DNA of 24,000 nt from assembly GCA_964486625.1 (NCBI GenBank), contig CAZANW010000016.1:8398-32397 (forward strand), read 5' to 3'. Within the stretch, counting starts at the first letter, position 1. Each line of letters begins with the position of its first letter. Position numbers and translations under genes: made by a program. Below are positions 594 through 19,944 of this stretch, one piece after another. The notes beneath the pieces were generated by a model that was given only the letters and a program-made list of their open reading frames with translations, was not told the origin of the DNA and searched no databases. This stretch comes from an uncultured Halobacteria archaeon. Its GTDB lineage: Archaea > Halobacteriota > Syntropharchaeia > JACQPP01.

Positions 594-2477
594 TCAGAAG
601 TCCCAGTTCGCCGGCTGCCCGTAGTTCTTGGTCCACCAAAGCGGGAACCCGAGCCTGACCCACCGCAGCGCCTCCTTGTATCCGGAGTCCACCGGCGTCC
701 CCGAAATCACCGGGTAGAAAACGAGGAACAGGACCGCCGCCGCCGTGATGAGCGCCGCGGCGAGCCAGAGCCCCCGCTTCGGGTCCTTTTCCCACGCCCG
801 CTCCACACCCCACGCGCACCCGAGGGCGAGCAGGGCGACGTTCGGGAAGTAGTGGTAGATGAAGAGGACTCGCGGGATGGGCGCGAGGGCGGCCCACTGG
901 ACGAGCCAGGCGACGCCGATGAAGAGCGCCGCCCGTTCCCTGCGCGCCCGGGAGAGGGCGAGGACCACGAACGCCAGCCCCGCCCACCACACCACCGGGT
1001 TCCCCATCGAGACGATGGTCGAGACCTTGTCGCCGAAGGTCTCGCCATACATCCAGAGCGGGTGGAGGATAAGGGGCCACGACCACCACGGGGAGCCGTA
1101 GGGGTGGGGGGCTTCCAGGGTGGAGTGGTATCCCCAGATGGAGCGCGGCCCGCAGCACTGCTCCGAGAGGACGTCGCCGAGCCCGAGGCCCGAGGCGTAG
1201 TAGGGGGCGTAGGTCGCCAGGTAAATCGCCCCGGCCGCAGCGAGGCCGGCGAGGAACGGGCGGACCGAGGCGCGGAAGAGGTCGCGCTCGCGCCGCACCC
1301 GCACGAGGGCCAGGAGGAGGAGAGCCGCCAGCGAGTTCACGGCGACGACCTTGACGGAGAGGGCGAGGCCGAAAAAGAGCAGCGCAAGGAACAATGGATT
1401 TTTGAGGATTCCGACAGCTCGCGCGCGCTCGGCGGCACACGCATCCGCAGGAGGCGTGTGTTTGCGACAAAGTCGCAAGGCCCCGGCCTCGCTCGCTCGG
1501 GCCAGCGCCGCTCCTCGCGCCTCGCTTCGCTCGGCGCTCGTCGCAATCATGGCGCTGGGGGCCGCCTCGCTTGTGCGCTCGCTGCCCTTCAATGAGTTGC
1601 CTCTTCCGGGGAGAATCTCTGAGGGCGTCATCCACCACTTGGCGAAGAAGGCCCACATCCCCGTCAGGAACAGGAACAGGAAAATCTCTCCCGTCGAAAT
1701 CCGCGCCTGGGTGAAGTGCATGAAGTCGAACGTGACGAGCGCCGCGGCCACGATGCCCGCGCGCCGGTTCCCGAGCAGGTTGCGCCCCAGCAGGAACGCC
1801 GCCGGGATGGCCGCCGCGCCCGCCAGGACCCCGAGGAGCCGCCAGCCGAAGGGGCCGTTCCCCGCCACGAGAATCGAGAGGGCAATCAGGTCCTTCCCGA
1901 GAGGCGGGTGGGTCCACTCGAAGAAGGGCGGGGCCCGCCGGAGATACTCGTCGGCGGTCCGCATGAAGTAAATCTCGTCGAAGTAGGCGCCCGCGAAGTA
2001 GGTGGGGGCGCCGGAGACGAGGGCCGCCTCGTCCGCGAGTTTTTCGGCGCCCGGCGGCCCGCTCACGCCGGAGACCCGCACCGCGTCGAGCCCCCGGACG
2101 GGGACCACCTCGGCGACCGTCGCCCGGGAGTCGCTGAAGTTGAGCCGGAGGTAGCGGGTGTCGCACTGGGTCGTGGAGGGGACCCACTGCTTGTAGTCGC
2201 CCTGCGCCGAAGCGGTGGACTTGTAGGACCATTCGCCCGGCTGGCCGCAGGACACCTCGGCCTTCAGCGGCTCGGGGTCCCACACCGCGAAGAAGACGCG
2301 GTCCACCCGCTGGACGCTCCCGAGGTCGAGGACCGCCTCTCCGTCCCCCCTCCAGCCGCTCGACGGGAAGGCGCCGGCCCCGAGGTTCCAGAGGCCGACG
2401 ATGAGAAAGAGGGCGGTGAGGCCCGAAACAATCGCCAGCGGCGCGCGCGGATGGACCAGCCACTTCTTTGGTTCCAT
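594..2477 (-). CDS. GT39 / PMT-family dolichyl-phosphate-mannose-protein mannosyltransferase-like GT-C membrane glycosyltransferase, carrying an in-frame repeat-element insertion
   Basis: 627-aa polytopic membrane protein. Loop-1 acidic motif YFDEIYFMRTADEYL (PMT DE motif) and C-terminal HPYGSPWWSWPL motif typical of the PMT/PMT_4TMC region. Starts 3 nt after the stop of the upstream gene (operon). Confidence 0.85.
   Translation of the reverse strand: MEPKKWLVHPRAPLAIVSGLTALFLIVGLWNLGAGAFPSSGWRGDGEAVLDLGSVQRVDRVFFAVWDPEPLKAEVSCGQPGEWSYKSTASAQGDYKQWVPSTTQCDTRYLRLNFSDSRATVAEVVPVRGLDAVRVSGVSGPPGAEKLADEAALVSGAPTYFAGAYFDEIYFMRTADEYLRRAPPFFEWTHPPLGKDLIALSILVAGNGPFGWRLLGVLAGAAAIPAAFLLGRNLLGNRRAGIVAAALVTFDFMHFTQARISTGEIFLFLFLTGMWAFFAKWWMTPSEILPGRGNSLKGSERTSEAAPSAMIATSAERSEARGAALARASEAGALRLCRKHTPPADACAAERARAVGILKNPLFLALLFFGLALSVKVVAVNSLAALLLLALVRVRRERDLFRASVRPFLAGLAAAGAIYLATYAPYYASGLGLGDVLSEQCCGPRSIWGYHSTLEAPHPYGSPWWSWPLILHPLWMYGETFGDKVSTIVSMGNPVVWWAGLAFVVLALSRARRERAALFIGVAWLVQWAALAPIPRVLFIYHYFPNVALLALGCAWGVERAWEKDPKRGLWLAAALITAAAVLFLVFYPVISGTPVDSGYKEALRWVRLGFPLWWTKNYGQPANWDF
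1404..1619. repeat. GC-rich palindromic (MITE/RPE-like) element, copy A, inside the GT39 ORF
   Basis: A 1406-1486 matches the reverse complement of 15341-15420 (about 90% by hand alignment). A 1501-1557 matches 15284-15339 in direct orientation (about 50 of 57). Ends are gaggattc ... gagaatctc. Outer boundaries are approximate. Confidence 0.7.
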
Positions 2478-2480
2478 CGC

Positions 2481-3728
2481 TCACCCCGGCGCCGGGGCCT
2501 CCCGGGGCGCGGGCCCCTCCCCTTTCCAGAACCGCCAGAGGGCCCACGCGAAGAGCCCGGTGTTCAGGGCCACGAAGGGCGGGATGGTCCAATCCGAGAT
2601 GACCGAGGTGCCGCCGTTCAGCGCGCGGAGGGCGTAGGCGAGGTTGAAAAGGTAAGAGCCGGTCAGGGCCACGTAGAGGAAGCGGTCCCGGGGCCACATG
2701 AGGACAAGGAGGGCGAGGGCCGGGAACAGATAGCGCTCGTGGATTCGGGTGGAGACCATGAAGAAGGCGAAGACCGTGAGGAAGGCCACCTGCAGCATGA
2801 GCCGGTCCCGGTCCGCGGCCCGCGCATATCGCTTGTGCATGAGCCACACCAGGAGCCCCGCGATGGCGAGGAAGGCGGCCCACCCCCACGCCTGCGGGGA
2901 GGCTCCGAGAACGGGAACCTGCGCCTCCTTGACCCGCATGCCCGCCAGGGCCCAGAGGTTGTAGGCGTTGAGGCTCGTCTCGTTGTAGACGTTGTAGCCG
3001 CCGACGTAGCGCTCGGCGATGAATCCGACCGGGTTCGAGGCCCCGCGGAAAGGCGCAATGACCGCGAGAACCACGGCCCCGGCGACGAGTCCCGACGTCA
3101 CCGCCCGCTTGAGTCCCCCCTCCCGCAGGACGGCGTAGGCAATCACCGGCGCCACCAGGACCCCCTGCGGCTTGGCGAGGACCGCGAGGGCCAGGAGGAC
3201 CCCCGAGACCTCGAAGCGCTTCCTCAGCGCGGCCATCAGCGACGCGACCATGAAAACCGTGTAGAGGGTGTCCCACTGGCCCCACACGGCCAGGTTGAAG
3301 AGGGCCGCGGGGTTGAAGGCGTAGGCCGCGGCGCCGGCGAGGGCGACCTTCGGCCCCTTCGACCGCAGCCCGTGGTAGAGGAGGACGACCACCCCCAGGT
3401 CCACGAGGTTCTGGGGCAGCTTCAGAAAGAGCGTTTGGGCGGCGTCGAACGGGGCGGCGAAGGGCCCGAGCCCCGCGGCCGCCTCGGCGCGCCCGAGGAG
3501 GGAGAAGACGAGGATGTTGAAGGGCGGGTAGTCGCTCCAGACCGAGTCGTAGAATCCCGGGAGGTCGGCGGCGGCCGCGGCGTGCCAGGCGGCGAAGGAG
3601 TTCAGGTCGGTGGCGTAGCCGGGGATGGGGAAGAGCGCGACGCGGAGGGCGAGGGAGGCGGCGAGGAGCAATGCGAGGAGCAGGGCCTCGCGGCGGCTCC
3701 AAGGCGGCGGGGGTGATTGAGAACTCAT
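2481..3728 (-). CDS. GT-C superfamily membrane glycosyltransferase (PMT_2 / DUF2029-like)
   Basis: 415-aa protein with many predicted TM helices and a Pro/aromatic-rich first loop (YDSVWSDYPPFN). ATGA start/stop overlap with the upstream gene at 3725-3728, followed directly by the GT39 gene. Family call is from overall architecture only. Confidence 0.6.
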   Translation of the reverse strand: MSSQSPPPPWSRREALLLALLLAASLALRVALFPIPGYATDLNSFAAWHAAAAADLPGFYDSVWSDYPPFNILVFSLLGRAEAAAGLGPFAAPFDAAQTLFLKLPQNLVDLGVVVLLYHGLRSKGPKVALAGAAAYAFNPAALFNLAVWGQWDTLYTVFMVASLMAALRKRFEVSGVLLALAVLAKPQGVLVAPVIAYAVLREGGLKRAVTSGLVAGAVVLAVIAPFRGASNPVGFIAERYVGGYNVYNETSLNAYNLWALAGMRVKEAQVPVLGASPQAWGWAAFLAIAGLLVWLMHKRYARAADRDRLMLQVAFLTVFAFFMVSTRIHERYLFPALALLVLMWPRDRFLYVALTGSYLFNLAYALRALNGGTSVISDWTIPPFVALNTGLFAWALWRFWKGEGPAPREAPAPG

Positions 3729-5978: not shown

Positions 5979-6695
5979 TTACAGGCCGAGGACTTCCTGC
6001 ATCGTGTGAATCCCGGGCCGGGCGCGGACCACCCACCGGGCGGCCCTCAGGGCCCCGGCGGCGAACGCGGCCCGGGAGTGGGCGCGGTGGGTCAGTTCCA
6101 GCCGCTCCCCGGGGCCCGCGAGGACGAGGGTGTGGTCCCCGACCACGTCGCCCGCGCGGAGCGAGTGGACGGTCGTTCCCCGCCCCCGCGCGGCCGCGAT
6201 GCGGGCCATCTCCTTCGCGGTCCCGCTGGGGGCGTCCCTCTTGGTCCGGTGGTGGGCCTCGACAATTTCGACGTCGTACTCCCGCAGGAGGTCGAGGGCG
6301 GCCTCTTCGAGTCTCCAGAGGACATTCACCCCGACGGAGAAGTTGCTCGACACCACGGCGGGGACCCGGCGGCCGACGGTGCGCCGCAGGGCCGCGGCCT
6401 GGGCCGGGGTGAAGCCGGTGGTCCCGACGACGAGGGCGGTCCCTGTCGCCGCCGCCATCCGGGCGCTCGCCAGGGCTCCCCCGGGAGCGGTGAAGTCAAT
6501 CAGGACCCCCGCCCGGCTGGCGCGGAGTGCGGCGTCCGACGGCTCCTCGACCCGGACCGGGCCCGCCGGGACCCCGGCGTCCCGGATGTCGAAGGCCGCT
6601 GCCAGAACCAAATCGCGCTGCTGGAGAATGGATTCGACGAGGGCCGACCCCATGCGGCCCCGGGCGCCGGCGACGGCGATGCGGAGGGCACTCAT
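5979..6695 (-). CDS. dapB: 4-hydroxy-tetrahydrodipicolinate reductase
   Basis: N-terminal Rossmann motif IAVAGARGRMG and the diagnostic EAHHRTKRDAPSGTA motif. ATGA overlap with dapA at 6692-6695. Confidence 0.95.
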   Translation of the reverse strand: MSALRIAVAGARGRMGSALVESILQQRDLVLAAAFDIRDAGVPAGPVRVEEPSDAALRASRAGVLIDFTAPGGALASARMAAATGTALVVGTTGFTPAQAAALRRTVGRRVPAVVSSNFSVGVNVLWRLEEAALDLLREYDVEIVEAHHRTKRDAPSGTAKEMARIAAARGRGTTVHSLRAGDVVGDHTLVLAGPGERLELTHRAHSRAAFAAGALRAARWVVRARPGIHTMQEVLGL

Positions 6696-7588
6696 CGCGT
6701 TTTCAGGAGGCGCATTTTCCGCAGGACCCCCTTCAGCCTCGCCTCGTTCTCGGGCCCCAGGGGCGCCAGGGGCAGGCGGGGCTTGCCGGCGGCGAGCCCC
6801 ATCAGTTCGGCGGCGCGCTTCGCCGGGACGGGGTTGGTCTCCAGGAAGAGCGCCTCGATGAGGGGCGCGAGTTCGTAGTGGAGGCTCCGGGCCCGGGCGA
6901 AGTCGCCCCGGAGGGCCGCGGCCACCATGTCGGCCACTTTCCGCGGGACGAGGTTCGCGGCCACCGAGATGACCCCATGTCCCCCGAGGGCGAGGATGGG
7001 GAGGGCCAGCGCGTCGTCGCCCGCCAGCACGAGGAAATCGGGGCCCGCGAGTTCAATCACCTTCGACACCTGGGCCAGGCTCCCGGAGGCCTCCTTGACC
7101 CCTGCGATGAGCCCGCGGCGGGCCATCTCCGCGACGAGGGGCGGCTCGATGTTCTGGGCCGTCCGGCCCGGGATGTTGTAGAGGAGGAGCGGGATGTCTG
7201 CGGCCCGGTGGACCTCCTCGAAGTGGGCGATGAGTCCCTGCCGGTTGGGCTTGTTGTAGTAGGGGGTGATGAGGAGGGCGGCCTCGGCCCCCGCGTCGGC
7301 GGCGTGGCGGGTGAGTTCCACGGCCTCCTCGGTGGAGTTGGAGCCGGTCCCGGCCACGACGGGGGCCCGCGAGTGCTCGATGGCGAGTTCGACGACCCGC
7401 TTGTGCTCGGCGTGGCTCAAGGTGGCCGACTCGCCGGTGGTGCCGCAGGGGCAAACGGCGGCGGAGCCCCCGCGGACCGTGAACTCGATGTTGCGGCGGA
7501 GCCCCTCCTCGTCGAGGGTTCCGTCCCTCCGGAAGGGGGTCAGGAGGGCGGGGATGGCGCCTTTCAGGCGGTTAAGCGGCATCGCCAT
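6692..7588 (-). CDS. dapA: 4-hydroxy-tetrahydrodipicolinate synthase
   Basis: GAIPALLTPF...DG.LD, GTTGESATLS.EHK and the overall DapA/NAL-family pattern. Translationally coupled to dapB. Confidence 0.95.
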   Translation of the reverse strand: MAMPLNRLKGAIPALLTPFRRDGTLDEEGLRRNIEFTVRGGSAAVCPCGTTGESATLSHAEHKRVVELAIEHSRAPVVAGTGSNSTEEAVELTRHAADAGAEAALLITPYYNKPNRQGLIAHFEEVHRAADIPLLLYNIPGRTAQNIEPPLVAEMARRGLIAGVKEASGSLAQVSKVIELAGPDFLVLAGDDALALPILALGGHGVISVAANLVPRKVADMVAAALRGDFARARSLHYELAPLIEALFLETNPVPAKRAAELMGLAAGKPRLPLAPLGPENEARLKGVLRKMRLLKTR

Positions 7589-7871: not shown

Positions 7872-9872
7872 CTATCTGAGAAAGGCCTCTTTCACCCCGC
7901 CGTCCACCGAGATGGCGCACCCGGTGGTCTTCGCGCTCCGGTCCGATGCGAGCCAGAAGACCGCCTCGGCCACGTCCCCGGGGGTCACCTCGACCCCGAG
8001 GAGGCTTCGCCGGCGGTAGAACTCCCCCAGCCGCCCCGCGGGGACTCCGTGGGCGCGGGCCCGCTCCTCCCGGACCCCCCGGCTCCAGAGGCGCGAGCCC
8101 CGGAACACCGCGTCGGGGTGGACCAGGTTCACCCGGATGCCCAGCGGGGCCGCCTCGATGGCGAGGACCCGGGCCAGTTGCGCTTCGGCCGCCTTGGAGG
8201 CGCTGTAGGCGCCGAACTCCCTCCCCGGGGCCGGGACGTTCTTGGAGGCGACGAAGACTATCGAGCCGCCGAGGCCCTGGCGCTTCATGATGGAGAGCCC
8301 CTCCCGGGCCGCGAGGAAGGCGCCGGTGGCGTTGACGGCGAAGGACCTCTCCCACGAATCGAGGGTCGCGGACTCGACGGGTGAGGGGAGGGCGACGCCC
8401 GCGTTGGGGACCAGGATGTCGAGTCCGCCGAAGGCTTCCACGCAGGCCTCGAAGCCGCGCCGGACCGACTCCTCCGAGGCCACGTCCATCTCCACAGCGA
8501 CGGCCCGGTCGGGGGTCCGGGCGCAGATTTCGGCAGCGGCGGCCTTTGCCCCCTGTCGGTCCACATCCGCCACCGCCACATGGGCCCCCTCGGCGGCCAG
8601 CCGCCCGGCCACGGCCCGGCCGATGCCGCTGGCGCCTCCGGTCACCAGGGCGATGCGGCCCCCCAGTTCGCCCGCGGGCTCCGCCAGGCGCAGTTTGCGG
8701 AGTTCGAGGGGCCAGTAGTCCACGTCGAACAGGTCGGCCTCGCCCAGCGGGACGTAGCCCCCGAGGACGGAGGCCCCCTCCATGACCGAGATGGCGTGGC
8801 GGAAAATCTCCGCGGCGAGTCTCGCGGCGGCGCGGTCCCTCCCGCGGGCCACCAGCCCCGCGCCGGGAACAAGGACGAGCTGCGGCGCGGAATCGTGCAT
8901 CCCCACATCCCGGGCCTCGGCGCTGCGCCTGGAGTGGCGTCGGTAATATGCCGCGTAGTCGCGCTCGTAGGCCAACACCGCATCGCGGAACCCCTCCGGA
9001 GCGGATGCGACCCAGAGCGGGCGGGGCTTCGTGCGCATCACATGGTCGGGGGTCACGGGGCCCCGCAGGGCCATCCCCCGCGCATCGGGGCGCGAGAGGA
9101 ACGCCAGGACATCGGGCGAGGAGTCGAGGTGAAGGACGCCGCGCGCGCGGGAGCCCTCTTGCGACGCGGTCGCAAGGAGGGCGCCGCGCAGTTCGGGCCC
9201 GATGGAGGAGAGCCTCCTCCGCGGCTGCGCGGGGGGCGGCGGAGCTTTCCGCTGCCGCTTCCGCACGTAGGCGAGCGCCCGGTCCACCGCGCGACGGGTC
9301 TCGGCGAGGGCATCGCGCCCCGTCTCCCCCCGCGTGACCAGCCCGTGCCTCTCCAGGACGACCCACCGCGCCCGGCGGGCCGCGGACGCGGCCTCTTTCG
9401 ACAGCAGGAAGCCCGGCCTCCGGTAGGGCACGAGGGCGGCGTCTTCCCCCAGGGCGGCGGCCACGTGCTTCCGGGGCTCCGGGGTGTTGGTGAGCATCAG
9501 GACGGCGTCGGCGTGGGTGTGGAGCACGAACCGCCCCGGGAGGAAGGCGTGGAGGAGGGTCTCGATGGAGGGGCGCGGCCCGGGCTCCACGCGGAGCCGC
9601 TCCAGGACCTCCGCAATCTCCTCGTCCTCCATCGCGCCGCGGGACCGGAGGGCCTGCGCCTCCTTCAGCCGGATTCCCGCGAACTCTTCGGCCCGGATGG
9701 TCCGGAGGTCGGAGCCGCTGCCCTTGACCCGGAGCACCTCCACTAACCGGCCCAGCGGGTCCCTCTCGGCCACCTTGGCGGAGGTGTTGCCCCCGCCCCG
9801 GGTCACGAGGGAGGTGTCGCGGCCGATTCGGCGGCTGACGGAGACCAGTTCATCCAGCCCGCCCCTCGTCAT
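7872..9872 (-). CDS. bifunctional class II aldolase (adducin-head domain) / short-chain dehydrogenase, RhaEW/YuxG-like (rhamnulose-1-phosphate aldolase / lactaldehyde dehydrogenase family)
   Basis: The N-terminal half has GGGNTSAKV and HTHADAV motifs of the class II aldolase domain. The C-terminal half is an SDR, with LVTGGASGIGRA, NAG and YSASKAA motifs. Length is 666 aa, typical of the fusion family. Confidence 0.85.
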   Translation of the reverse strand: MTRGGLDELVSVSRRIGRDTSLVTRGGGNTSAKVAERDPLGRLVEVLRVKGSGSDLRTIRAEEFAGIRLKEAQALRSRGAMEDEEIAEVLERLRVEPGPRPSIETLLHAFLPGRFVLHTHADAVLMLTNTPEPRKHVAAALGEDAALVPYRRPGFLLSKEAASAARRARWVVLERHGLVTRGETGRDALAETRRAVDRALAYVRKRQRKAPPPPAQPRRRLSSIGPELRGALLATASQEGSRARGVLHLDSSPDVLAFLSRPDARGMALRGPVTPDHVMRTKPRPLWVASAPEGFRDAVLAYERDYAAYYRRHSRRSAEARDVGMHDSAPQLVLVPGAGLVARGRDRAAARLAAEIFRHAISVMEGASVLGGYVPLGEADLFDVDYWPLELRKLRLAEPAGELGGRIALVTGGASGIGRAVAGRLAAEGAHVAVADVDRQGAKAAAAEICARTPDRAVAVEMDVASEESVRRGFEACVEAFGGLDILVPNAGVALPSPVESATLDSWERSFAVNATGAFLAAREGLSIMKRQGLGGSIVFVASKNVPAPGREFGAYSASKAAEAQLARVLAIEAAPLGIRVNLVHPDAVFRGSRLWSRGVREERARAHGVPAGRLGEFYRRRSLLGVEVTPGDVAEAVFWLASDRSAKTTGCAISVDGGVKEAFLR

Positions 9873-11133: not shown

Positions 11134-12054
11134 TTACGTGAATACCTCGCAGCCGTCCTCCGTCACGATGACCGAGTGCTCGAACTGCGCGACCGGCGCC
11201 CCCGACACTTCCACCAGGACCGGATATTCGTAGAGGACCCCCGCGCCCTTCAGTTGCCGGAGCCCGAGTTCCACCTGCGGCGACTTCAGCCACCGCTTGG
11301 CCACGGGGAGCCCGCGGAACCTCCGCAGTTCCGCCTGGACCGCCCTCCCCTGGGGGAGCCGGACGGGCTTCTCCCCCGTGAGCATCACAATCTCCACCGC
11401 GGGGCCGTCTTTGACCCGTCCCGCGCCGGTGGTGGCGAAGGGCTCGATGGCGACGGTCTGCCCCGCCCGCAGCCGGGGGCCGCCCGGCGTCACCCGGTTG
11501 GGGATGGAGGGGGGCGCGTGCTGGGTGTAGCGCTCGAGGCCGTGGCCCGTGAGGTTCCCCACCGGCTTCACGCCGTCGAATTCGGAGATGGCCGCCTCGA
11601 TGGCCGCGCCAATCTCGGCGGTCGAGACCCCCGCGCGCATGGCGGCGATGGCGGCCTCCAGCCCCTTCCGGGCCGCCTCGACGATGGGGCCGTGCCTCCC
11701 CGACAGGTCCACAGTCACCGCCGTGTCGGCGATGAAGCCGTCCACCTGGGCGCCGACGTCGAGTTTCACCAGGTCCTCGCCGAAGACCAGCGGGTCCCCC
11801 GCCTTCGGGGTGTAGTGGGCCGCCTCGTGGTTCCGGGAGATGTTGCAGGGGAACGCGGGCTCGGCCCCCGCCTCCCGGATGCGGCCCTCGACGAACTCCG
11901 CAATCTCGACGAGCCGGACCCCCGGTTTGATTTTCGCGGCCGCCTCGTCCCGGATTTGGCGGAGAATCTTGCCCGCCCTGCGGTGCTTCTCCAGGCGCTC
12001 CTCCGGCGGGACCTCCTCCGGGGGACGCCGGAGCACTTCGAACTTAGTGACCAT
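11134..12054 (-). CDS. map: methionine aminopeptidase, type 2 (archaeal)
   Basis: FPCNISRNHEAAHYTP and other M24A metal-ligand motifs; about 306 aa from the internal Met (MVTKFEVL). The track N-terminal extension (MQNAKFKSQNLAFFILHFSFCI) is translation of the AT-rich palindrome. Confidence 0.9.
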   Translation of the reverse strand: MVTKFEVLRRPPEEVPPEERLEKHRRAGKILRQIRDEAAAKIKPGVRLVEIAEFVEGRIREAGAEPAFPCNISRNHEAAHYTPKAGDPLVFGEDLVKLDVGAQVDGFIADTAVTVDLSGRHGPIVEAARKGLEAAIAAMRAGVSTAEIGAAIEAAISEFDGVKPVGNLTGHGLERYTQHAPPSIPNRVTPGGPRLRAGQTVAIEPFATTGAGRVKDGPAVEIVMLTGEKPVRLPQGRAVQAELRRFRGLPVAKRWLKSPQVELGLRQLKGAGVLYEYPVLVEVSGAPVAQFEHSVIVTEDGCEVFT

Positions 12055-12060
12055 GTCCGG

Positions 12061-12130
12061 AATGCAAAATGAAAAATGCAAAATGAAAAATGCAAGATTT
12101 TGACTTTTGAACTTTGCATTTTGCACTTTG
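12061..12130. repeat. AT-rich imperfect palindrome of the tgcaaaat/attttgca family (with a 14-nt tandem unit aatgcaaaatgaaa)
   Basis: Lies between the pepQ-like stop (12145) and the map start (12054). The minus strand reads ...tgcatttttcattttgcatttttcattttgcatt. The 15-mer tgcatttttcatttt (complement of 12066-12080 and 12080-12094) recurs at 20009-20023. Confidence 0.7.
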
Positions 12131-16140: not shown

Positions 16141-17178
16141 ATGGTGCGAAAGACGAAGGTCCACGTCCTTGGAGCCACCGGCCTCGTCGGCCAGCGCTTC
16201 CTCCAGTCCCTCTGGCGCCACCCCTGGTTCGAGGTGACGGGGGTCGCCGCGAGCGAGCGCTCCGCCGGCAAGACCTACCTCCGGGCCGCCAAGTGGGTGA
16301 TTGACTGGGAGATGCCCGCGGAGTTCGGCAACCTCGAGGTCCAGCCGGTGGACCGCACCGACGTGGACGCCGACGTCGTCTTCTCCGCCCTCCCCGCCGA
16401 CGTCGCCCGGGAGGTCGAGCCGAAGTTCGCGGCGGCGGGCCGCGCGGTCTGCAGCAACGCATCCGCGTTCCGCATGGAGCCCGATGTGCCCCTCCTCATC
16501 CCGGAAATCAACCCCGACCACCTGGGGCTCCTTTCCACCCAGCGCAAAAAGAGGAAGTGGAAGGGCGCGCTGGTCACGAACCCCAACTGCACCACGGTCT
16601 TCCTCGCCATGGCCCTCGCGCCCCTCCGCCCCTTCGGAATCCAGGAGGTCCACGCCGCCTCGATGCAGGCGGTGAGCGGTGCGGGCTACGACGGCGTCCC
16701 GAGCATGGCCATCACGGACAACGTGGTTCCCCACATCGGGGGCGAGGAGGCGAAGGTGGAGAGCGAGCCGCGCAAGATTCTCGGCGCCCTCAAAGGGGGC
16801 CGCATCGAGGACGCGCCCTTCGAGGTGGCGGCGTCGTGCCACCGGGTCCCGGTCCTCGACGGCCACACCGAGGCGGTATTCGTCCGCTTCTCGAAGACGC
16901 CGAAACTGGAGGAGGTCGTCGAGGCGTGGCGGGAGATGAAGTCCGTCGGCACTCCCACGGCGCCCGAGCGCCCGCTCATCGTCCGGGAGGAGGAGAACCG
17001 GCCCCAACCCCGCCTCGACCGGGATGCCGGAAAAGGCATGGTCACCACCCTCGGCCGCGCGGCCCTCAAGGGGAAGTGGCTCCGGTTCATCTGCCTCGGC
17101 CACAACACGATTCGCGGGGCCGCCGGGGCGAGCGTGCTGAACGCGGAACTGATGGTGAAAGACGGCTGGCTGAAATAG
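16141..17178 (+). CDS. asd: aspartate-semialdehyde dehydrogenase (archaeal type)
   Basis: VLGATGLVGQRF NAD(P)-binding start, the active-site context NPNCTTV, and HRVPV..GH near the C-terminus. Confidence 0.95.
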   Translation: MVRKTKVHVLGATGLVGQRFLQSLWRHPWFEVTGVAASERSAGKTYLRAAKWVIDWEMPAEFGNLEVQPVDRTDVDADVVFSALPADVAREVEPKFAAAGRAVCSNASAFRMEPDVPLLIPEINPDHLGLLSTQRKKRKWKGALVTNPNCTTVFLAMALAPLRPFGIQEVHAASMQAVSGAGYDGVPSMAITDNVVPHIGGEEAKVESEPRKILGALKGGRIEDAPFEVAASCHRVPVLDGHTEAVFVRFSKTPKLEEVVEAWREMKSVGTPTAPERPLIVREEENRPQPRLDRDAGKGMVTTLGRAALKGKWLRFICLGHNTIRGAAGASVLNAELMVKDGWLK

Positions 17179-17188
17179 GCGACGCGAA

Positions 17189-18088
17189 ATGAAGGTGCTA
17201 GTCCTGTCCGGCGGCACCGGGACCCCGAAACTCCTGCTGGGCCTCCGGCGGCTCGTCCCGGAGCGCGACATCACGGTCGTCGCCAACACCGGCGAGGACC
17301 TCTGGATTTCCGGAAACCTGGTCTGCCCCGACATCGACTCCGTGCTCTACACGCTCTCGGGGCGCATCGACCCCCGGCGGATGTGGGGCGTGCGGGGCGA
17401 CACCTTCGCCACCCACCGCCAACTGGCGGAACTGGGCTGGCGCGAGCCCCTCGCCCTGGGGGACCTCGACCGGGCGGCCCACATCGCCCGGAGCGAGATG
17501 GTGCGCGCGGGGCGGACCCTGACGGAGGCCACGGCGGCCCTGGCGCGGAGGATGGGCGTGCGGGCGACGGTCCTCCCTGCCAGCGACGGCCCGGTGGCGA
17601 CGCTCATCCGGACGCCGGAGGGCGAGATGCATTTCCAGGAGTTCTGGGTGGTCCGGCGCGGGCGGCCGCGGGTCCTCGGGGTGCGCTACGCGCTGGGCCG
17701 CGGTTCGGGCCCGGCCCCGGAGGTCCTGCGGGCCCTCCGCTCCCACGACGCCCTGCTCATCGGCCCGAGCAACCCGGCGACCTCCGTCGGCCCCATCCTC
17801 GCGGTCCTCGGGCGCCACGTGCGCGGCAAGCGGGTGGTCGCGGTCTCGCCCATCGTCGGCCGCCGGGCCTTCTCGGGGCCCGCGGGGAAACTCCTCCGGG
17901 GAGTCGGCTACCCGGTCTCCCCGCGAGGCGTCCTCGAGTTCTACTCCGACCGCCTCGGGTCGCCGCCGGAGCTCCTCGTGGAGCCGCGGGACGCGGATCC
18001 AGCCGCGGGACTCCACCCCGCACCCCTGCACATGAAGCGCCCGGGCGACGCGGCCCGGCTGGCACGGCGGGTCTTGGCGTTCCTGTGA
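17189..18088 (+). CDS. cofD: 2-phospho-L-lactate transferase (F420 biosynthesis)
   Basis: LSGGTGTPKLL.GL, VVANTGEDLWISGNLVCPDIDSVLYTLSG and GPSNP motifs of CofD. Starts 10 nt after asd. Confidence 0.9.
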   Translation: MKVLVLSGGTGTPKLLLGLRRLVPERDITVVANTGEDLWISGNLVCPDIDSVLYTLSGRIDPRRMWGVRGDTFATHRQLAELGWREPLALGDLDRAAHIARSEMVRAGRTLTEATAALARRMGVRATVLPASDGPVATLIRTPEGEMHFQEFWVVRRGRPRVLGVRYALGRGSGPAPEVLRALRSHDALLIGPSNPATSVGPILAVLGRHVRGKRVVAVSPIVGRRAFSGPAGKLLRGVGYPVSPRGVLEFYSDRLGSPPELLVEPRDADPAAGLHPAPLHMKRPGDAARLARRVLAFL

Positions 18089-18850
18089 GCCTCCCCGGGC
18101 AACCGGCCCGGGGGAACCGGGCGGGCGTGGCCCCGCCAGACCAGCGTCCCTTGTCAGACCCCCGATGGGTCCAAGGGTCCGGACTTACCGGGACGACCGC
18201 TCGGGAGGGGCGGGCCCGGAACCCGCGCCTCACTCCTTCTATGTCCCCGCCGCCGATAGGGCTTCCGGACGGAAAAGACGTAGGCGACCGTAGTCGTTGC
18301 CGACGATACAGGAGGGCGTTCGAAGGGTCCGCGAAAAGGGATATGGCCGGGCCGGAACTCCAGCGTTCATCGCTTGCTTTGCGATCGGCGCGTCCGTAGG
18401 AAGCGCCGAGGCGCAACGAAGCTGCGCCGCTCCGGCCGGTAACCCTCGGCCCGGCTCTGCATCCCCGCGGGGCATACACGGGAATCATCGCAGGAATGTC
18501 CGGCTGCTCCCGGGTACCGTTGCGGGGACTGTGGCCCTCCCGTTGCCCCGGCCGTCACGGAAGGCTTCGCCATCTTGGGCCGGTCCTCGTGGAGGGCTCC
18601 CCAAATTGAGTCGGGCCAAGGCAAAAACCCCTCGTTGCCGACGAAACGAGAGGGTTTCCGAGAGGACCGGCGCGGGCCTCAACCTTTGACTGCCACGCGT
18701 GCCGAAGGCACGCGGGATCGAGGCCCGCGACGACGAGACGAGAGAGTTCCGAGTGGACCGGCAACAAAGGCCGGTCCTCGTGGAGGGCCCAATCCCCATG
18801 CACCCCCCTGGATAAAAACCCGCAGGGCAAACGCGAGTCATCGCGACATC
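18089..18850. ncRNA. ORF-free, highly structured, internally repetitive region: candidate unclassified structured RNA(s); strand undetermined
   Basis: No believable ORF in any frame. Strong helices: 18092-18099/18105-18112, 18627-18653, 18670-18679/18719-18728 enclosing 18695-18702/18706-18713, and 18754-18761/18770-18777. Direct repeats: an exact 20-mer at 18577-18596 and 18768-18787, and a roughly 32-nt near-repeat at 18639-18670 and 18731-18761. Confidence 0.35.
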
Positions 18851-18851
18851 C

Positions 18852-18859
18852 TTTATATT
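18852..18859 (+). promoter_or_regulatory. TATA box (tttatatt) for the GTPase gene
   Basis: Centred about 30 nt upstream of the ATG at 18886. Confidence 0.55.
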
Positions 18860-18885
18860 CCCCCCTCCTACGGCTCCCCCAAGAA

Positions 18886-19944
18886 ATGAGCAACGTCAAC
18901 ATCGCCGTGGTCGGCGCCTTCCGCTCCGGCAAGTCGGCCCTGGTCGAGAAGCTCCAGCAGCGGAAGGGCATGGCCTCCGATATCGCCCTCTACTCCTACA
19001 AGAGCGGGACCGTCAACGTCACCCTCGTCGACGTCCCCGGGGACGCGGACAAGATGGGGCCCCTGATGAACGCGCTCCACATGGCGGACGCGGTCCTGCT
19101 CTGCGTCTCGGCCGAGCGCGGCATCGAGGTCCAGACCGGCGAGGCGCTCATCGCGGCAGCCGCCGCCGGGGTGAGCCGCGCGGCCGTCGCCATCACCAAG
19201 TCCGACTCCTCCACCTTCGACGACCTGGAGAAACTGAAGGCCCGGACCGCGGCGCTCCTCAAAGGCGGCCCCTTCGCCGGCGCGCCGGTCTTCGAGACCT
19301 CCACGGTCGCCGGCGTCGGAATCGCCGACGTGGCGGCCCACCTCGTCTCCCTCGACATCCCGAGGTCGAAGGAGGGGACGTTCAAGATGGGGGCCGACCA
19401 CTCCATCGAGCCCAAGGCGGGCTTCACGGTGGTCACCGGGACTGTGAGGCGCGGCGCTCTCCACCCGCGGGACGTGGTGACGCTCCTCCCGTGGGAGAAG
19501 GAGCTCGTGGTCCAGTCCATCCAGGTCCACAACGAGGACATGCCGGAGGTCATCGCGGGGGACCGCATCGCCATCGGCTTCAAGGGAATCCACTACCACG
19601 ACATCTCCCGGGGCGACACGGTGTGCGGCGCCGACAGCCCGGTCCGGAAGGCGAAGGCGTTCAAGGTCGCGATGAAAGTGGACCCGTTCTACAAGGAGCC
19701 CGTCTCGGTTGAGCAGCGTCTCCACCTCGCGGCGGGGCTCCAGTTCCACCCCGTCGCGGTGAAGAAAATCCTGAAGAACGGGGCCGAGGCCCCCGAGGCC
19801 AAGGCCGGGGAGGCGTGCGTCCTCGAAGTCGAGGTGGAGCGGGTCTCGATGGCGCTGGAGCCGGGGGAGTCGTGCATCGTGACGAGGCCGGAGTTGCCGG
19901 GGAGGATGAGCCGCATCTGCGGGGCGGGGAAGGTGGAGTTTTAA
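18886..19944 (+). CDS. EF-Tu/SelB-like translational-type GTPase paralogue (G domain plus beta-barrel domain 2), 352 aa
   Basis: G1 GAFRSGKS, G3 DVPG and G4 TKSD motifs, followed by a domain-2-like segment (GTVRRGALHPRDVVTLLP). It lacks the canonical GHVDHGKT and RGITI motifs of bona fide elongation factors. Confidence 0.75.
   Translation: MSNVNIAVVGAFRSGKSALVEKLQQRKGMASDIALYSYKSGTVNVTLVDVPGDADKMGPLMNALHMADAVLLCVSAERGIEVQTGEALIAAAAAGVSRAAVAITKSDSSTFDDLEKLKARTAALLKGGPFAGAPVFETSTVAGVGIADVAAHLVSLDIPRSKEGTFKMGADHSIEPKAGFTVVTGTVRRGALHPRDVVTLLPWEKELVVQSIQVHNEDMPEVIAGDRIAIGFKGIHYHDISRGDTVCGADSPVRKAKAFKVAMKVDPFYKEPVSVEQRLHLAAGLQFHPVAVKKILKNGAEAPEAKAGEACVLEVEVERVSMALEPGESCIVTRPELPGRMSRICGAGKVEF

Follow-up and report, generated by a model that had tools for sequence, protein, structure and literature searches.

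A probable three-hairpin box H/ACA guide RNA gene and its likely lineage-specific partial duplicate between cofD and a GTPase gene in an uncultured archaeon

We analysed a 24,000-nucleotide stretch of archaeal DNA (the window; GC ~70%) and, within it, the gap between cofD and the gene of an aSelB/EF-Tu-like GTPase, which very probably harbours a previously unannotated gene for a box H/ACA pseudouridylation guide small RNA (sRNA). The cofD gene (17189–18088; Pfam CofD) lies on the opposite strand to this sRNA, and the GTPase gene (18886–19944, plus strand) is followed by a DUF1405 gene. From the cofD stop codon at 18086–18088 to the GTPase ATG at 18886, the gap measures 797 bp, in agreement with a sequence-only reading of the DNA that had put it at about 800 bp. 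The same reading had called the gap free of open reading frames (ORFs). Taken literally this is not so: eight mechanically called ORFs of 78–138 aa overlap the gap, and none of the eight matched a Pfam family. Three parts can be distinguished, each best read on the minus strand: the candidate sRNA gene (18598→18334), a second element upstream of it that we refer to as unit 1 (18790→18622), and the stretch next to cofD (18089–18335).

To assess the structure of the gap, we compared its folding energy with that of dinucleotide-shuffled sequences, using 20 shuffles per strand in the whole-gap runs. The whole gap had a z-score of −3.84 on the minus strand and −2.15 on the plus strand. For 18336–18598, the values were −3.18 and −1.26, respectively, and for the minus strand of 18620–18790 the value was −4.31. 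The left third (18089–18335) scored −0.18, which is chance level. Because the excess structure is confined to the former two segments, only ~18334–18790 is special, with its signal on the minus strand. The UUCG loops and GAUGA kink-turn (K-turn) motifs are legible on that strand only. The earlier description of the gap as heavily base-paired thus holds for the gap as a whole and for these two segments, and fails for the left third. The individual helices listed at that time were all recovered, including the 8-bp stem just beyond the cofD stop (18093–18100/18106–18113); all positions in that reading had been given ~1 nt too low.

We then examined homologous loci, which were reached via the neighbouring GTPase and, later, via a HemK2/MTQ2-type methyltransferase whose gene adjoins the RNA in relatives. 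These loci comprised an NCBI metagenome-assembled genome (MAG; L001), three Logan assemblies (L002, L003 and L010), the NCBI assembly GCA_016207465 of a 'Euryarchaeota archaeon' (L045) and ENA/JGI sequences (L046/L047). L001, from a metagenome bin labelled 'Halobacteria archaeon', is the closest public relative; L045 and L046/L047 are far more divergent and of lower GC. A three-hairpin unit of ~220–265 nt occurred in all six relatives with usable sequence (L001, L002, L003, L045, L046 and, in part, L010; seven contigs, six lineages) and was the sole part of the gap to do so. Thus, the sequence-only candidate recurs in relatives as a ~265-nt core; the left 250 nt were absent elsewhere, and unit 1 was present in the window and L001 only. 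The sRNA is 87–91% identical among the four close genomes, and the adjoining GTPase gene is 83–87% identical at the nucleotide level. At 4-fold degenerate sites of the GTPase gene, the window and L001 are 64% identical. Within the sRNA, the stems vary in sequence and the guide strands do not.

The neighbours of the sRNA vary between genomes. It is divergent from the GTPase gene in the window and in L001–L003, and stands beside a different gene in L045 and L046. In L010 (positions 1–176), it is inverted relative to the GTPase gene, being on the same strand with its 3′ end ~50–60 nt from the ATG. Because of this variation and the inversion, the sRNA behaves as an independent gene and not as a leader or trailer. 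Other searches added little. A GTPase-based search of genome contigs yielded one relative only, and a conserved 19-mer from hairpin 2, scanned against metagenomes, returned four chance matches, all inside coding DNA, from which the lineage appears to be rare in collections. No such RNA was found beside the gene in the more distant GTPase homologues L004–L008, and the methyltransferase loci L044, L048 and L049 had no room for it.

The architecture of the sRNA is most readily introduced through a 20-mer, X, that the sequence-only reading had reported as an exact repeat. Indeed, X occurs at 18578–18597 (X1) and 18769–18788 (X2), with 0.02 chance matches expected. On the minus strand, X reads GCCCUCC-ACGAGGA-CCGGCC, which corresponds to 5′ elements of an H/ACA hairpin, hairpin 1, namely the lower-stem strand, the guide and the upper-stem strand. 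RNAalifold and minimum free energy folding, applied to the alignment and to single sequences, predicted three hairpins with internal loops. All three follow a lower stem, pocket and upper stem architecture, with 96.9% of cells paired in the structure model. We therefore delineated the predicted three-hairpin sRNA gene (unit 2; 18334–18598, minus strand) as extending ~265 nt from just upstream of GCCCUCC to a T-run. Its GC content is ~68%.

Hairpin 1 (18530–18597) was defined by sequence reading and by alignment to a covariance model (CM) of this hairpin, CM R1. It has a 7-bp lower stem, P1 (18591–18597/18534–18540), the 5′ guide ACGAGGA (18584–18590), the upper stem P2, CCGGCC/GGCCGG (18578–18583/18548–18553), and the 3′ guide GGCAACG (18541–18547). 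Beyond P2, the predicted K-turn comprises A·A/A·G pairs, a CGU bulge (18557–18559) and GA (18555–18556), and the hairpin is closed by the apical stem GGC-GAA-GCC (18560–18574). The GA stem counts nine positions (6 bp, one mismatch and two purine pairs), opposite a ..GUGA.. strand with the 3-nt bulge. The purine pairs are canonical G·A/A·G in L002, L003, L045 and L046, and A·A/A·G in the window and L001. Box ACA (18530–18532), 15 nt from P2, is ACA in 6/6 genomes; its spacing is +15 in the four high-GC genomes and ~13–16 nt in L045 and L046.

Hairpin 2 (18458–18529) has an 8-bp P1 (18522–18529/18461–18468), an invariant 5′ guide, AACGG(U) (18516–18521), a P2 at 18507–18516/18475–18484, a GAUGA K-turn motif (18485–18489), an apical stem (18490–18504) and the 3′ guide UGCCCC (18469–18474). 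Its GA stem, ~12 positions long with C·A at the second pair, is atypical. The box, 14 nt from the upper stem (18458–18460), is GCA in the window and L002, and ACA in L001, L003, L010, L045 and L046. The L045 and L046 orthologues have unrelated stem sequences, and each was independently predicted to fold into the same stem, pocket, stem and apical stem, followed by ACA.

Hairpin 3 (18342–18455), defined by sequence reading and by covariation in its lower stem, has a 9-bp P1 (18447–18455/18346–18354) and a 5-bp P2 (18435–18439/18360–18364), separated by the invariant guides AGGGUUA (5′; 18440–18446) and AGUUC (3′; 18355–18359). The K-turn is predicted from three G·A-type pairs (GGA, 18431–18433, opposite GAA, 18366–18368) and a GAU bulge (18369–18371), giving a GA stem of nine positions (5 bp, one mismatch and three G·A-type pairs). 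Box AUA (18342–18344) lies 15 nt from P2. It is AUA at +15 throughout the high-GC clade, AAA in L046 and a displaced UCAAA in L045. The apical loop of hairpin 3 in the window carries a 44-nt insertion with two extra small hairpins (18385–18428), which is absent from L001, L002 and L003.

Such lineage-specific inserts, consisting of one or two GC-rich and often UUCG-capped hairpins, recur in the apical loops beyond the K-turn: besides the window insert (minus strand), we located inserts at ~2608–2655 of L002 (minus) and ~40–90 of L010 (plus). A ~30-nt module, CYCGGCGCYUCCUWCGGACGCGCCGAU, is common to the hairpin 3 insert of the window and the hairpin 1 insert of L002. Its occurrence in two different hairpins points to a small module that is mobile, or recombines, among hairpins.

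We compared these features with published criteria for archaeal H/ACA motifs, according to which the ANA box lies 14–16 nt from the upper stem and the distal G·A lies 9–10 positions above the pocket (PMC7075261, PMC4652768), in fold types denoted '10/5/9', '10/6/9' and '10/6/8'. The upper stem-to-box distances of 15, 14 and 15 nt and the GA stems of 9, ~12 and 9 positions agree with these criteria apart from the longer GA stem of hairpin 2. Hairpin 1 departs from the published rules in that its lower stem is 7 bp and its 3′ guide 7 nt long. The K-turns were identified by reading the aligned sequences, and binding of L7Ae to them is predicted. Since an internal ANA can be required for the activity of the upstream hairpin (PMC7075261), hairpin 2 may be impaired in the window and L002, where its box is GCA. 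A C/D-box sRNA was also considered and was rejected: by eye, the region contains no RUGAUGA/CUGA pair with proper spacing.

T-rich elements flank the predicted gene on both sides. Upstream, TTTTTGCC is kept 24–25 nt before GCCCUCC in the window, L001, L002 and L003, and at its position L045 and L046 carry the textbook TATA boxes TATAAATA and TTTAAAATA. In the window, this site includes a T5 run, GGGGTTTTTGCC (18623–18627, minus strand), which is likely the TATA-like promoter element of the H/ACA gene as well as the oligo-T stop of unit 1; from its placement, the run seems to serve both roles. Downstream, a T-run follows the 3′ box in all homologues. In the window it follows AUA at 18334–18337 and is likely an archaeal oligo-T terminator of the sRNA. 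We infer these promoter and terminator functions from position and composition.

To identify known relatives of the sRNA, we searched Rfam. No match was obtained in the whole window at the curated gathering thresholds. The sequence-only reading had been unable to place RNase P or signal recognition particle (SRP) RNA in the gap, and indeed neither these nor riboswitch families matched even at E ≤ 10; no tRNA or tmRNA genes were found. In E-value mode, the best match was to RF00064 (HgcG/Pab40), on the minus strand at 18612–18337, with 18.9 bits and an E-value of 0.008. RF00064 was also the best match at the homologous site and strand of L001 (30.6 bits, E 4e-5, full model) and L003 (28.4 bits), and L002 gave a partial match of 16.8 bits. 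Weak matches to Acido-Lenti-1, SorX and Atu_C7 were rejected as short GC hairpins at chance level. Based on these comparisons, we regard the sRNA as a divergent relative of Pab40/HgcG that lies below the Rfam membership criterion.

Pab40/HgcG, which corresponds to Pf7 of P. furiosus and Afu-4 of A. fulgidus, is a three-motif archaeal box H/ACA sRNA. Like the RNA described here, it consists of three consecutive H/ACA hairpins in one RNA of ~230–270 nt, each with a K-turn or K-loop and an ANA box, and the order of the motifs agrees. Motif 1 and hairpin 1 have the guide cores CGAGGA and GC(G/A)AC in common, motif 3 and hairpin 3 have GGUUA and GUU(A/C) in common, and the lower stem of motif 2 is the shorter one, at 8 bp, in both. 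By contrast, the stem sequences are unrelated, those described here belonging to an RNA of ~68% GC. Further, hairpin 1 has a K-turn and an apical GAA hairpin in place of a K-loop, and its lower stem (7 bp) and 3′ guide (7 nt) replace the 9/5–6 arrangement. The pocket of hairpin 2 differs, with a GCA box in the window, and shows no obvious correspondence to motif 2. The lineage-specific apical insertions and unit 1, a partial duplicate upstream, also distinguish the present locus from Pab40.

A second point of comparison is sR-h45 of Haloferax volcanii, an H/ACA sRNA of two stem-loops that guides 23S pseudouridines 1940/1942 and 2605 and has a 56-nt linker of no known function (PMC7075261). Compared by description, the two RNAs are both multi-hairpin H/ACA guides within the broader haloarchaea-related group, both have an internal H-box-like ANA between hairpins, and both have non-guide sequence in the neighbourhood. 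The 3′ hairpin of sR-h45 guides modification of the helix-69 loop, as proposed below for hairpin 3. However, sR-h45 possesses two hairpins and a long internal linker as opposed to three hairpins, and hairpin 1 has no counterpart there.

We scanned for rRNA targets of the pockets using E. coli rRNA in place of the lineage's own or any archaeal rRNA. The top 23S site for the hairpin 3 pocket was U1915, in the loop of helix 69. In a stricter scan, U1915 tied with U767, each scoring 7.0 with the window pocket and 8.0 with those of L045 and L046. The pocket of the Rfam motif-3 consensus gave U1915 as its sole top site in E. coli 23S. For hairpin 1, E. coli 23S contained no site, the residue at the inferred position being C, and for hairpin 2 no convincing site was found in E. 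coli rRNA. In P. abyssi 23S, motif 3 of Pab40 modifies U2016 of helix 69 in vitro and motif 1 modifies U2588 (Muller et al., PMC2377435). By analogy, the most likely target of hairpin 3 is the equivalent of E. coli U1915, in the helix-69 loop of 23S rRNA. As its guides share CGAGGA and GC(G/A)AC with motif 1, hairpin 1 most likely targets the same peptidyl-transferase-centre site, P. abyssi U2588. The G/A difference between the guides would mean a G·U as opposed to an A–U pair with the target U. These two conserved 23S pseudouridines, in the helix-69 loop and at the peptidyl-transferase centre, thus provide testable predictions.

By extension from the H/ACA family, the sRNA would be transcribed from the T-rich, TATA-like element ~25 nt upstream and end at the oligo-T run. 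L7Ae would bind the K-turn of each hairpin, and Cbf5–Nop10–Gar1 would bind the lower stem and ANA box. The internal loop would pair with rRNA on both sides of the target uridine, which Cbf5 would convert to pseudouridine. No cbf5, nop10, gar1 or L7Ae gene was seen within the annotated parts of the 24-kb window.

We next evaluated the stems by covariation. For hairpin 3, in seven sequences, four of ten lower-stem pairs changed on both sides, with 91% of cells paired. The covariation score was 0.314 versus 0.147 ± 0.031 in shuffled alignments, a value reached by 0/500 shuffles; slid controls scored at most 0.067. CM R1 detected hairpin 1 of L045 and L046 (E ~1e-6 to 1e-5) and cross-matched every copy of hairpin 3 except that of the window, in which the 44-nt insert blocks the match. 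A CM alignment of 11 hairpins, combining hairpins 1 and 3, contained nine of 18 pairs that changed on both sides, in 28 cells, and scored 0.415 versus 0.145 for shuffles (0/500; slid controls ≤ 0.151), although this alignment was fitted to the structure model and mixes two paralogous hairpins, which tempers its value as support. CM R2, the model of hairpin 2, was too specific, and the L045 and L046 orthologues were not detected with it. The stems of hairpins 1 and 3 are therefore supported by covariation once distant homologues are added. Both models also gave weak matches inside coding regions of the window, at 7460–7522 (minus) and 7960–8023 (plus), with E ~0.2–1; these are most likely chance GC-rich hairpins.

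A number of further observations weigh against the assignment of the sRNA as an H/ACA guide. With the four close sequences alone, covariation was uninformative: two compensatory pairs were present, and 178/500 shuffles equalled them. With 16.8 to 30.6 bits, all RF00064 scores fall far short of the 77-bit gathering score. Hairpin 2 of the window and L002 has a GCA box and not ANA, and the 3′ box of L045 (UCAAA) is displaced. The lower stems of hairpins 1 and 2, at 7–8 bp, are below the Pyrococcus norm of 9. Finally, the helix-69 match is not distinctive, 66 of 300 shuffled pockets scoring as well somewhere in 23S, and for hairpin 1 the proposed target derives from similarity to Pab40 motif 1 and not from a site in the E. 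coli scan. On balance, we hold with considerable confidence that 18598→18334 is a three-hairpin box H/ACA pseudouridylation guide sRNA gene, an identification made from sequence, predicted structure and conservation.

Overall, what had been flagged as a novel RNA is largely explained by a known class. The sequence-only reading was right to single out the gap, which contains a conserved, structured non-coding RNA gene, and mistaken in proposing one 0.8-kb RNA of an undescribed kind. If the assignment is correct, a guide for rRNA modification escapes automatic annotation in an uncultured archaeal lineage of very high GC that NCBI MAGs carry under the labels 'Halobacteria archaeon' or 'Euryarchaeota archaeon'; the curated Rfam thresholds return no match. 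The three-motif Pab40/Pf7/Afu-4 type of H/ACA sRNA would also extend beyond the Thermococcales and Archaeoglobales, and the seven sequences collected could seed a better covariance model.

Upstream of the sRNA gene and on the same strand lies unit 1 (18622–18790), a lineage-specific element of ~170 nt. Among the six genomes that are readable on that side, it occurs in two, the window and L001, and is absent from L002, L003, L045 and L046, in which the sRNA promoter directly adjoins the promoter region of the neighbouring gene; L010 ends before that side. In order, unit 1 consists of X2, S2/Y2, a UUCG-capped central hairpin, Y1, CGUCGGCAAC, a 3′ hairpin and a T-run. X2 repeats the initial 20 nt of the sRNA exactly, covering the 5′ strand of P1, the 5′ guide and the 5′ strand of P2 of hairpin 1. 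Twenty-three nucleotides upstream of X2 lies TTTTTAT (18812–18818, minus strand), a TATA-like element by its appearance. L001 has CCTTTTTGCCC at the same distance, and overall a T-run lies 23–26 nt upstream of X2 in the two genomes.

The near-repeat Y, also described earlier, was recovered at 18639–18671 (Y1) and 18731–18762 (Y2), with 88% identity. Y1 is followed by CGUCGGCAACGAGGGG, which resembles the 3′ guide and lower stem of hairpin 1; likewise, CGUCGGCAAC(GAGGGG) resembles the 3′ guide plus lower stem. The 5′ end of Y2 is complementary to X, and the reported X:Y complementarity spans 15 nt at 80–87%. In a sequence reading, S2/Y2 (UUGUUGCCGGUCCACUCG) is antisense-like to both guide strands of hairpin 1. 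A third, degenerate copy, Y3, comprising Y plus GGCAACGA, is located just downstream of the sRNA and its T-run, at 18294–18331 (minus strand), with 76% identity to 18632–18669. S2 also matches E. coli 16S over 11 nt (CCUUUGUUGCC), which by our own estimate is at chance expectation and was rejected.

The central hairpin (18668–18732) has a lower stem of 9–13 bp, an asymmetric internal loop of 5/15 nt and an 8-bp upper stem capped by a UUCG tetraloop. It includes the helix previously given as 10 bp, which we find to be 10–13 bp (18668–18680/18720–18732), and the hairpin enclosed by it (18696–18714), whose GAA loop is the UUCG tetraloop read on the other strand. We considered this hairpin as a fourth H/ACA motif and rejected it, as it has no K-turn and no ANA. 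More generally, no GA-type K-turn was found beside X2 or GGCAAC in unit 1, nor any ANA box, and CM R1 did not match. The GA in the internal loop of the central hairpin is not kept in L001. H/ACA-like motifs, such as sR203–210 of Pyrobaculum and the PabX candidates of P. abyssi, keep a K-turn or K-loop 'GA stem' by their guide strands (PMC4652768). Unit 1 resembles these motifs in that guide-like strands (X2 and GGCAAC) are kept and neither a proper lower stem nor an ACA box accompanies them. However, it has no such GA stem and so falls outside their definition. A dispersed repeat or miniature inverted-repeat transposable element was likewise rejected: no further occurrence of X, Y or the central hairpin was found in the 24 kb.

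Comparison of the window with L001 revealed that unit 1 is unevenly conserved. X2 is identical at 20/20 positions and CGUCGGCAAC at 10/10; the remainder of unit 1 is 68% identical, like synonymous sites. The central hairpin is kept in L001 via a U–A to C–G change and a paired G/C insertion. GAGGGG is deleted there, Y1 and the 3′ hairpin differ, and in Y2 an uncompensated G to C change breaks an X:Y pair. The sequence-only reading had proposed that X1 pairs with Y1 and Y2 with X2, or that they swap partners. The complementarity on which it relied is real, and the drift of Y in L001 weakens the pairing without compensation. Most of the X/Y architecture lies outside the conserved ~265-nt gene.

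In our reading, unit 1 arose through a lineage-specific, partial duplication of hairpin 1 with rearrangement, and most of it is drifting. Copies of the promoter position and of the initial 20 nt of the sRNA (X) would be accompanied by an inserted UUCG hairpin, flanked by hairpin 1 fragments of antisense-like (Y/S2) and sense-like (GGCAAC) character. The repeat pattern described earlier would stem from this unit. Having neither a K-turn nor an ACA box, unit 1 probably does not function as a guide. That X2 is perfectly conserved speaks against a decaying duplicate, which leaves it unexplained; X2 may be kept by selection of some kind or by gene conversion from X1. Together with the shared apical insertion module, a partial duplicate with an invariant 20-mer offers small, concrete leads on the evolution of guide RNA genes.

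Alternatively, unit 1 could be an independent, functional sRNA of ~170 nt, transcribed from its own T-rich element (18790→18622), with alternative folds of X2:Y2 versus S2:GGCAAC, or with pairing in trans to hairpin 1 as an anti-guide or pseudo-substrate. The identity of X2 and CGUCGGCAAC is striking beside the 64% identity of neutral-like sites (0.64^20 ~1e-4), and the equal distance of the upstream T-run in the two genomes, the fold z-score of −4.31, the compensatory change and paired insertion in the central hairpin, and the complementarity of S2 to both guide strands of hairpin 1 are all consistent with function. Nevertheless, two genomes only carry unit 1 and the four others that could be checked do not; outside X2, its identity is at the level of synonymous sites; and the uncompensated change in Y2, the differences in Y1 and the 3′ hairpin and the deletion of GAGGGG all point to drift. 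Moreover, a target-like character follows trivially from being antisense to a guide, and gene conversion from the constrained X1 could equally keep X2 identical. We therefore consider a functional unit 1 unlikely. Its more specific form, in which unit 1 is a regulator derived from a duplicated guide hairpin that acts as a fold switch or as a pseudo-substrate or anti-guide titrating the hairpin-1 pocket, is a speculation that we judge quite improbable. If true, unit 1 would regulate one specific rRNA pseudouridylation; to our knowledge, regulators of this type have not been described for any archaeal H/ACA guide.

That the whole gap is one large, undescribed structured RNA is very improbable. 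The whole gap does fold better than its shuffles on both strands and is without a match at the Rfam gathering thresholds. Against this, the relatives keep the 265-nt core only, and that core matches a known family; the left 250 nt are absent elsewhere and shuffle-like; four of the six checkable genomes lack unit 1; and internal T-runs and TATA-position elements divide the region into units.

A plus-strand cis-regulatory element, be it a cofD 3′ untranslated region with terminator hairpins or a leader or riboswitch 5′ of the GTPase gene, deserves almost no credence despite the hairpin directly beyond the cofD stop (18093–18113) and the somewhat better-than-shuffled plus strand (z = −2.15), as the kept TATA box of the GTPase gene itself (TTTATATT, 18852–18859, plus strand; kept in L001 and outside the RNA), 27–34 nt before the ATG, implies a leaderless transcript or a very short leader, the RNA is inverted relative to the GTPase gene in L010 and has a different neighbour in L045 and L046, cofD adjoins the RNA in no relative, and the plus strand of the core has a z-score of only −1.26.

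The remaining part of the gap, 18089–18293, is a spacer with no detectable feature and no counterpart in L001–L003. Synteny breaks exactly at the 3′ end of the sRNA (window 18089–18340 versus L001 2764–3500). In L001–L003, the HemK2/MTQ2-type methyltransferase gene adjoins the sRNA, starting ~20 nt beyond its 3′ end; in the window, this side is occupied by cofD, on the other strand, and ~250 nt of sequence. A methyltransferase pseudogene in 18089–18340 was rejected, as tblastn detected no remnant, and no methyltransferase was found anywhere in the 24-kb window. The ~250 nt adjoining cofD is a spacer left by the synteny break. Beyond the 3′ end of the sRNA in L045 (1067–1230) and L046 (900–1110), on the plus strand, repeated 'CTTTTCTTTCTTTT' tracts flank GC-rich hairpins; an example from L045 is GCAGCAGCCGCCGACCCCTGTGGGTCGGCGGCTGC.

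Elsewhere in the window, the minus strand encodes PMT-type and GT87 glycosyltransferases (594–3728), dapB and dapA (5979–7588), an aldolase–SDR fusion (7872–9872) and an M24 peptidase (11134–12126), and the plus strand encodes an aspartate-semialdehyde dehydrogenase (16141–17178).

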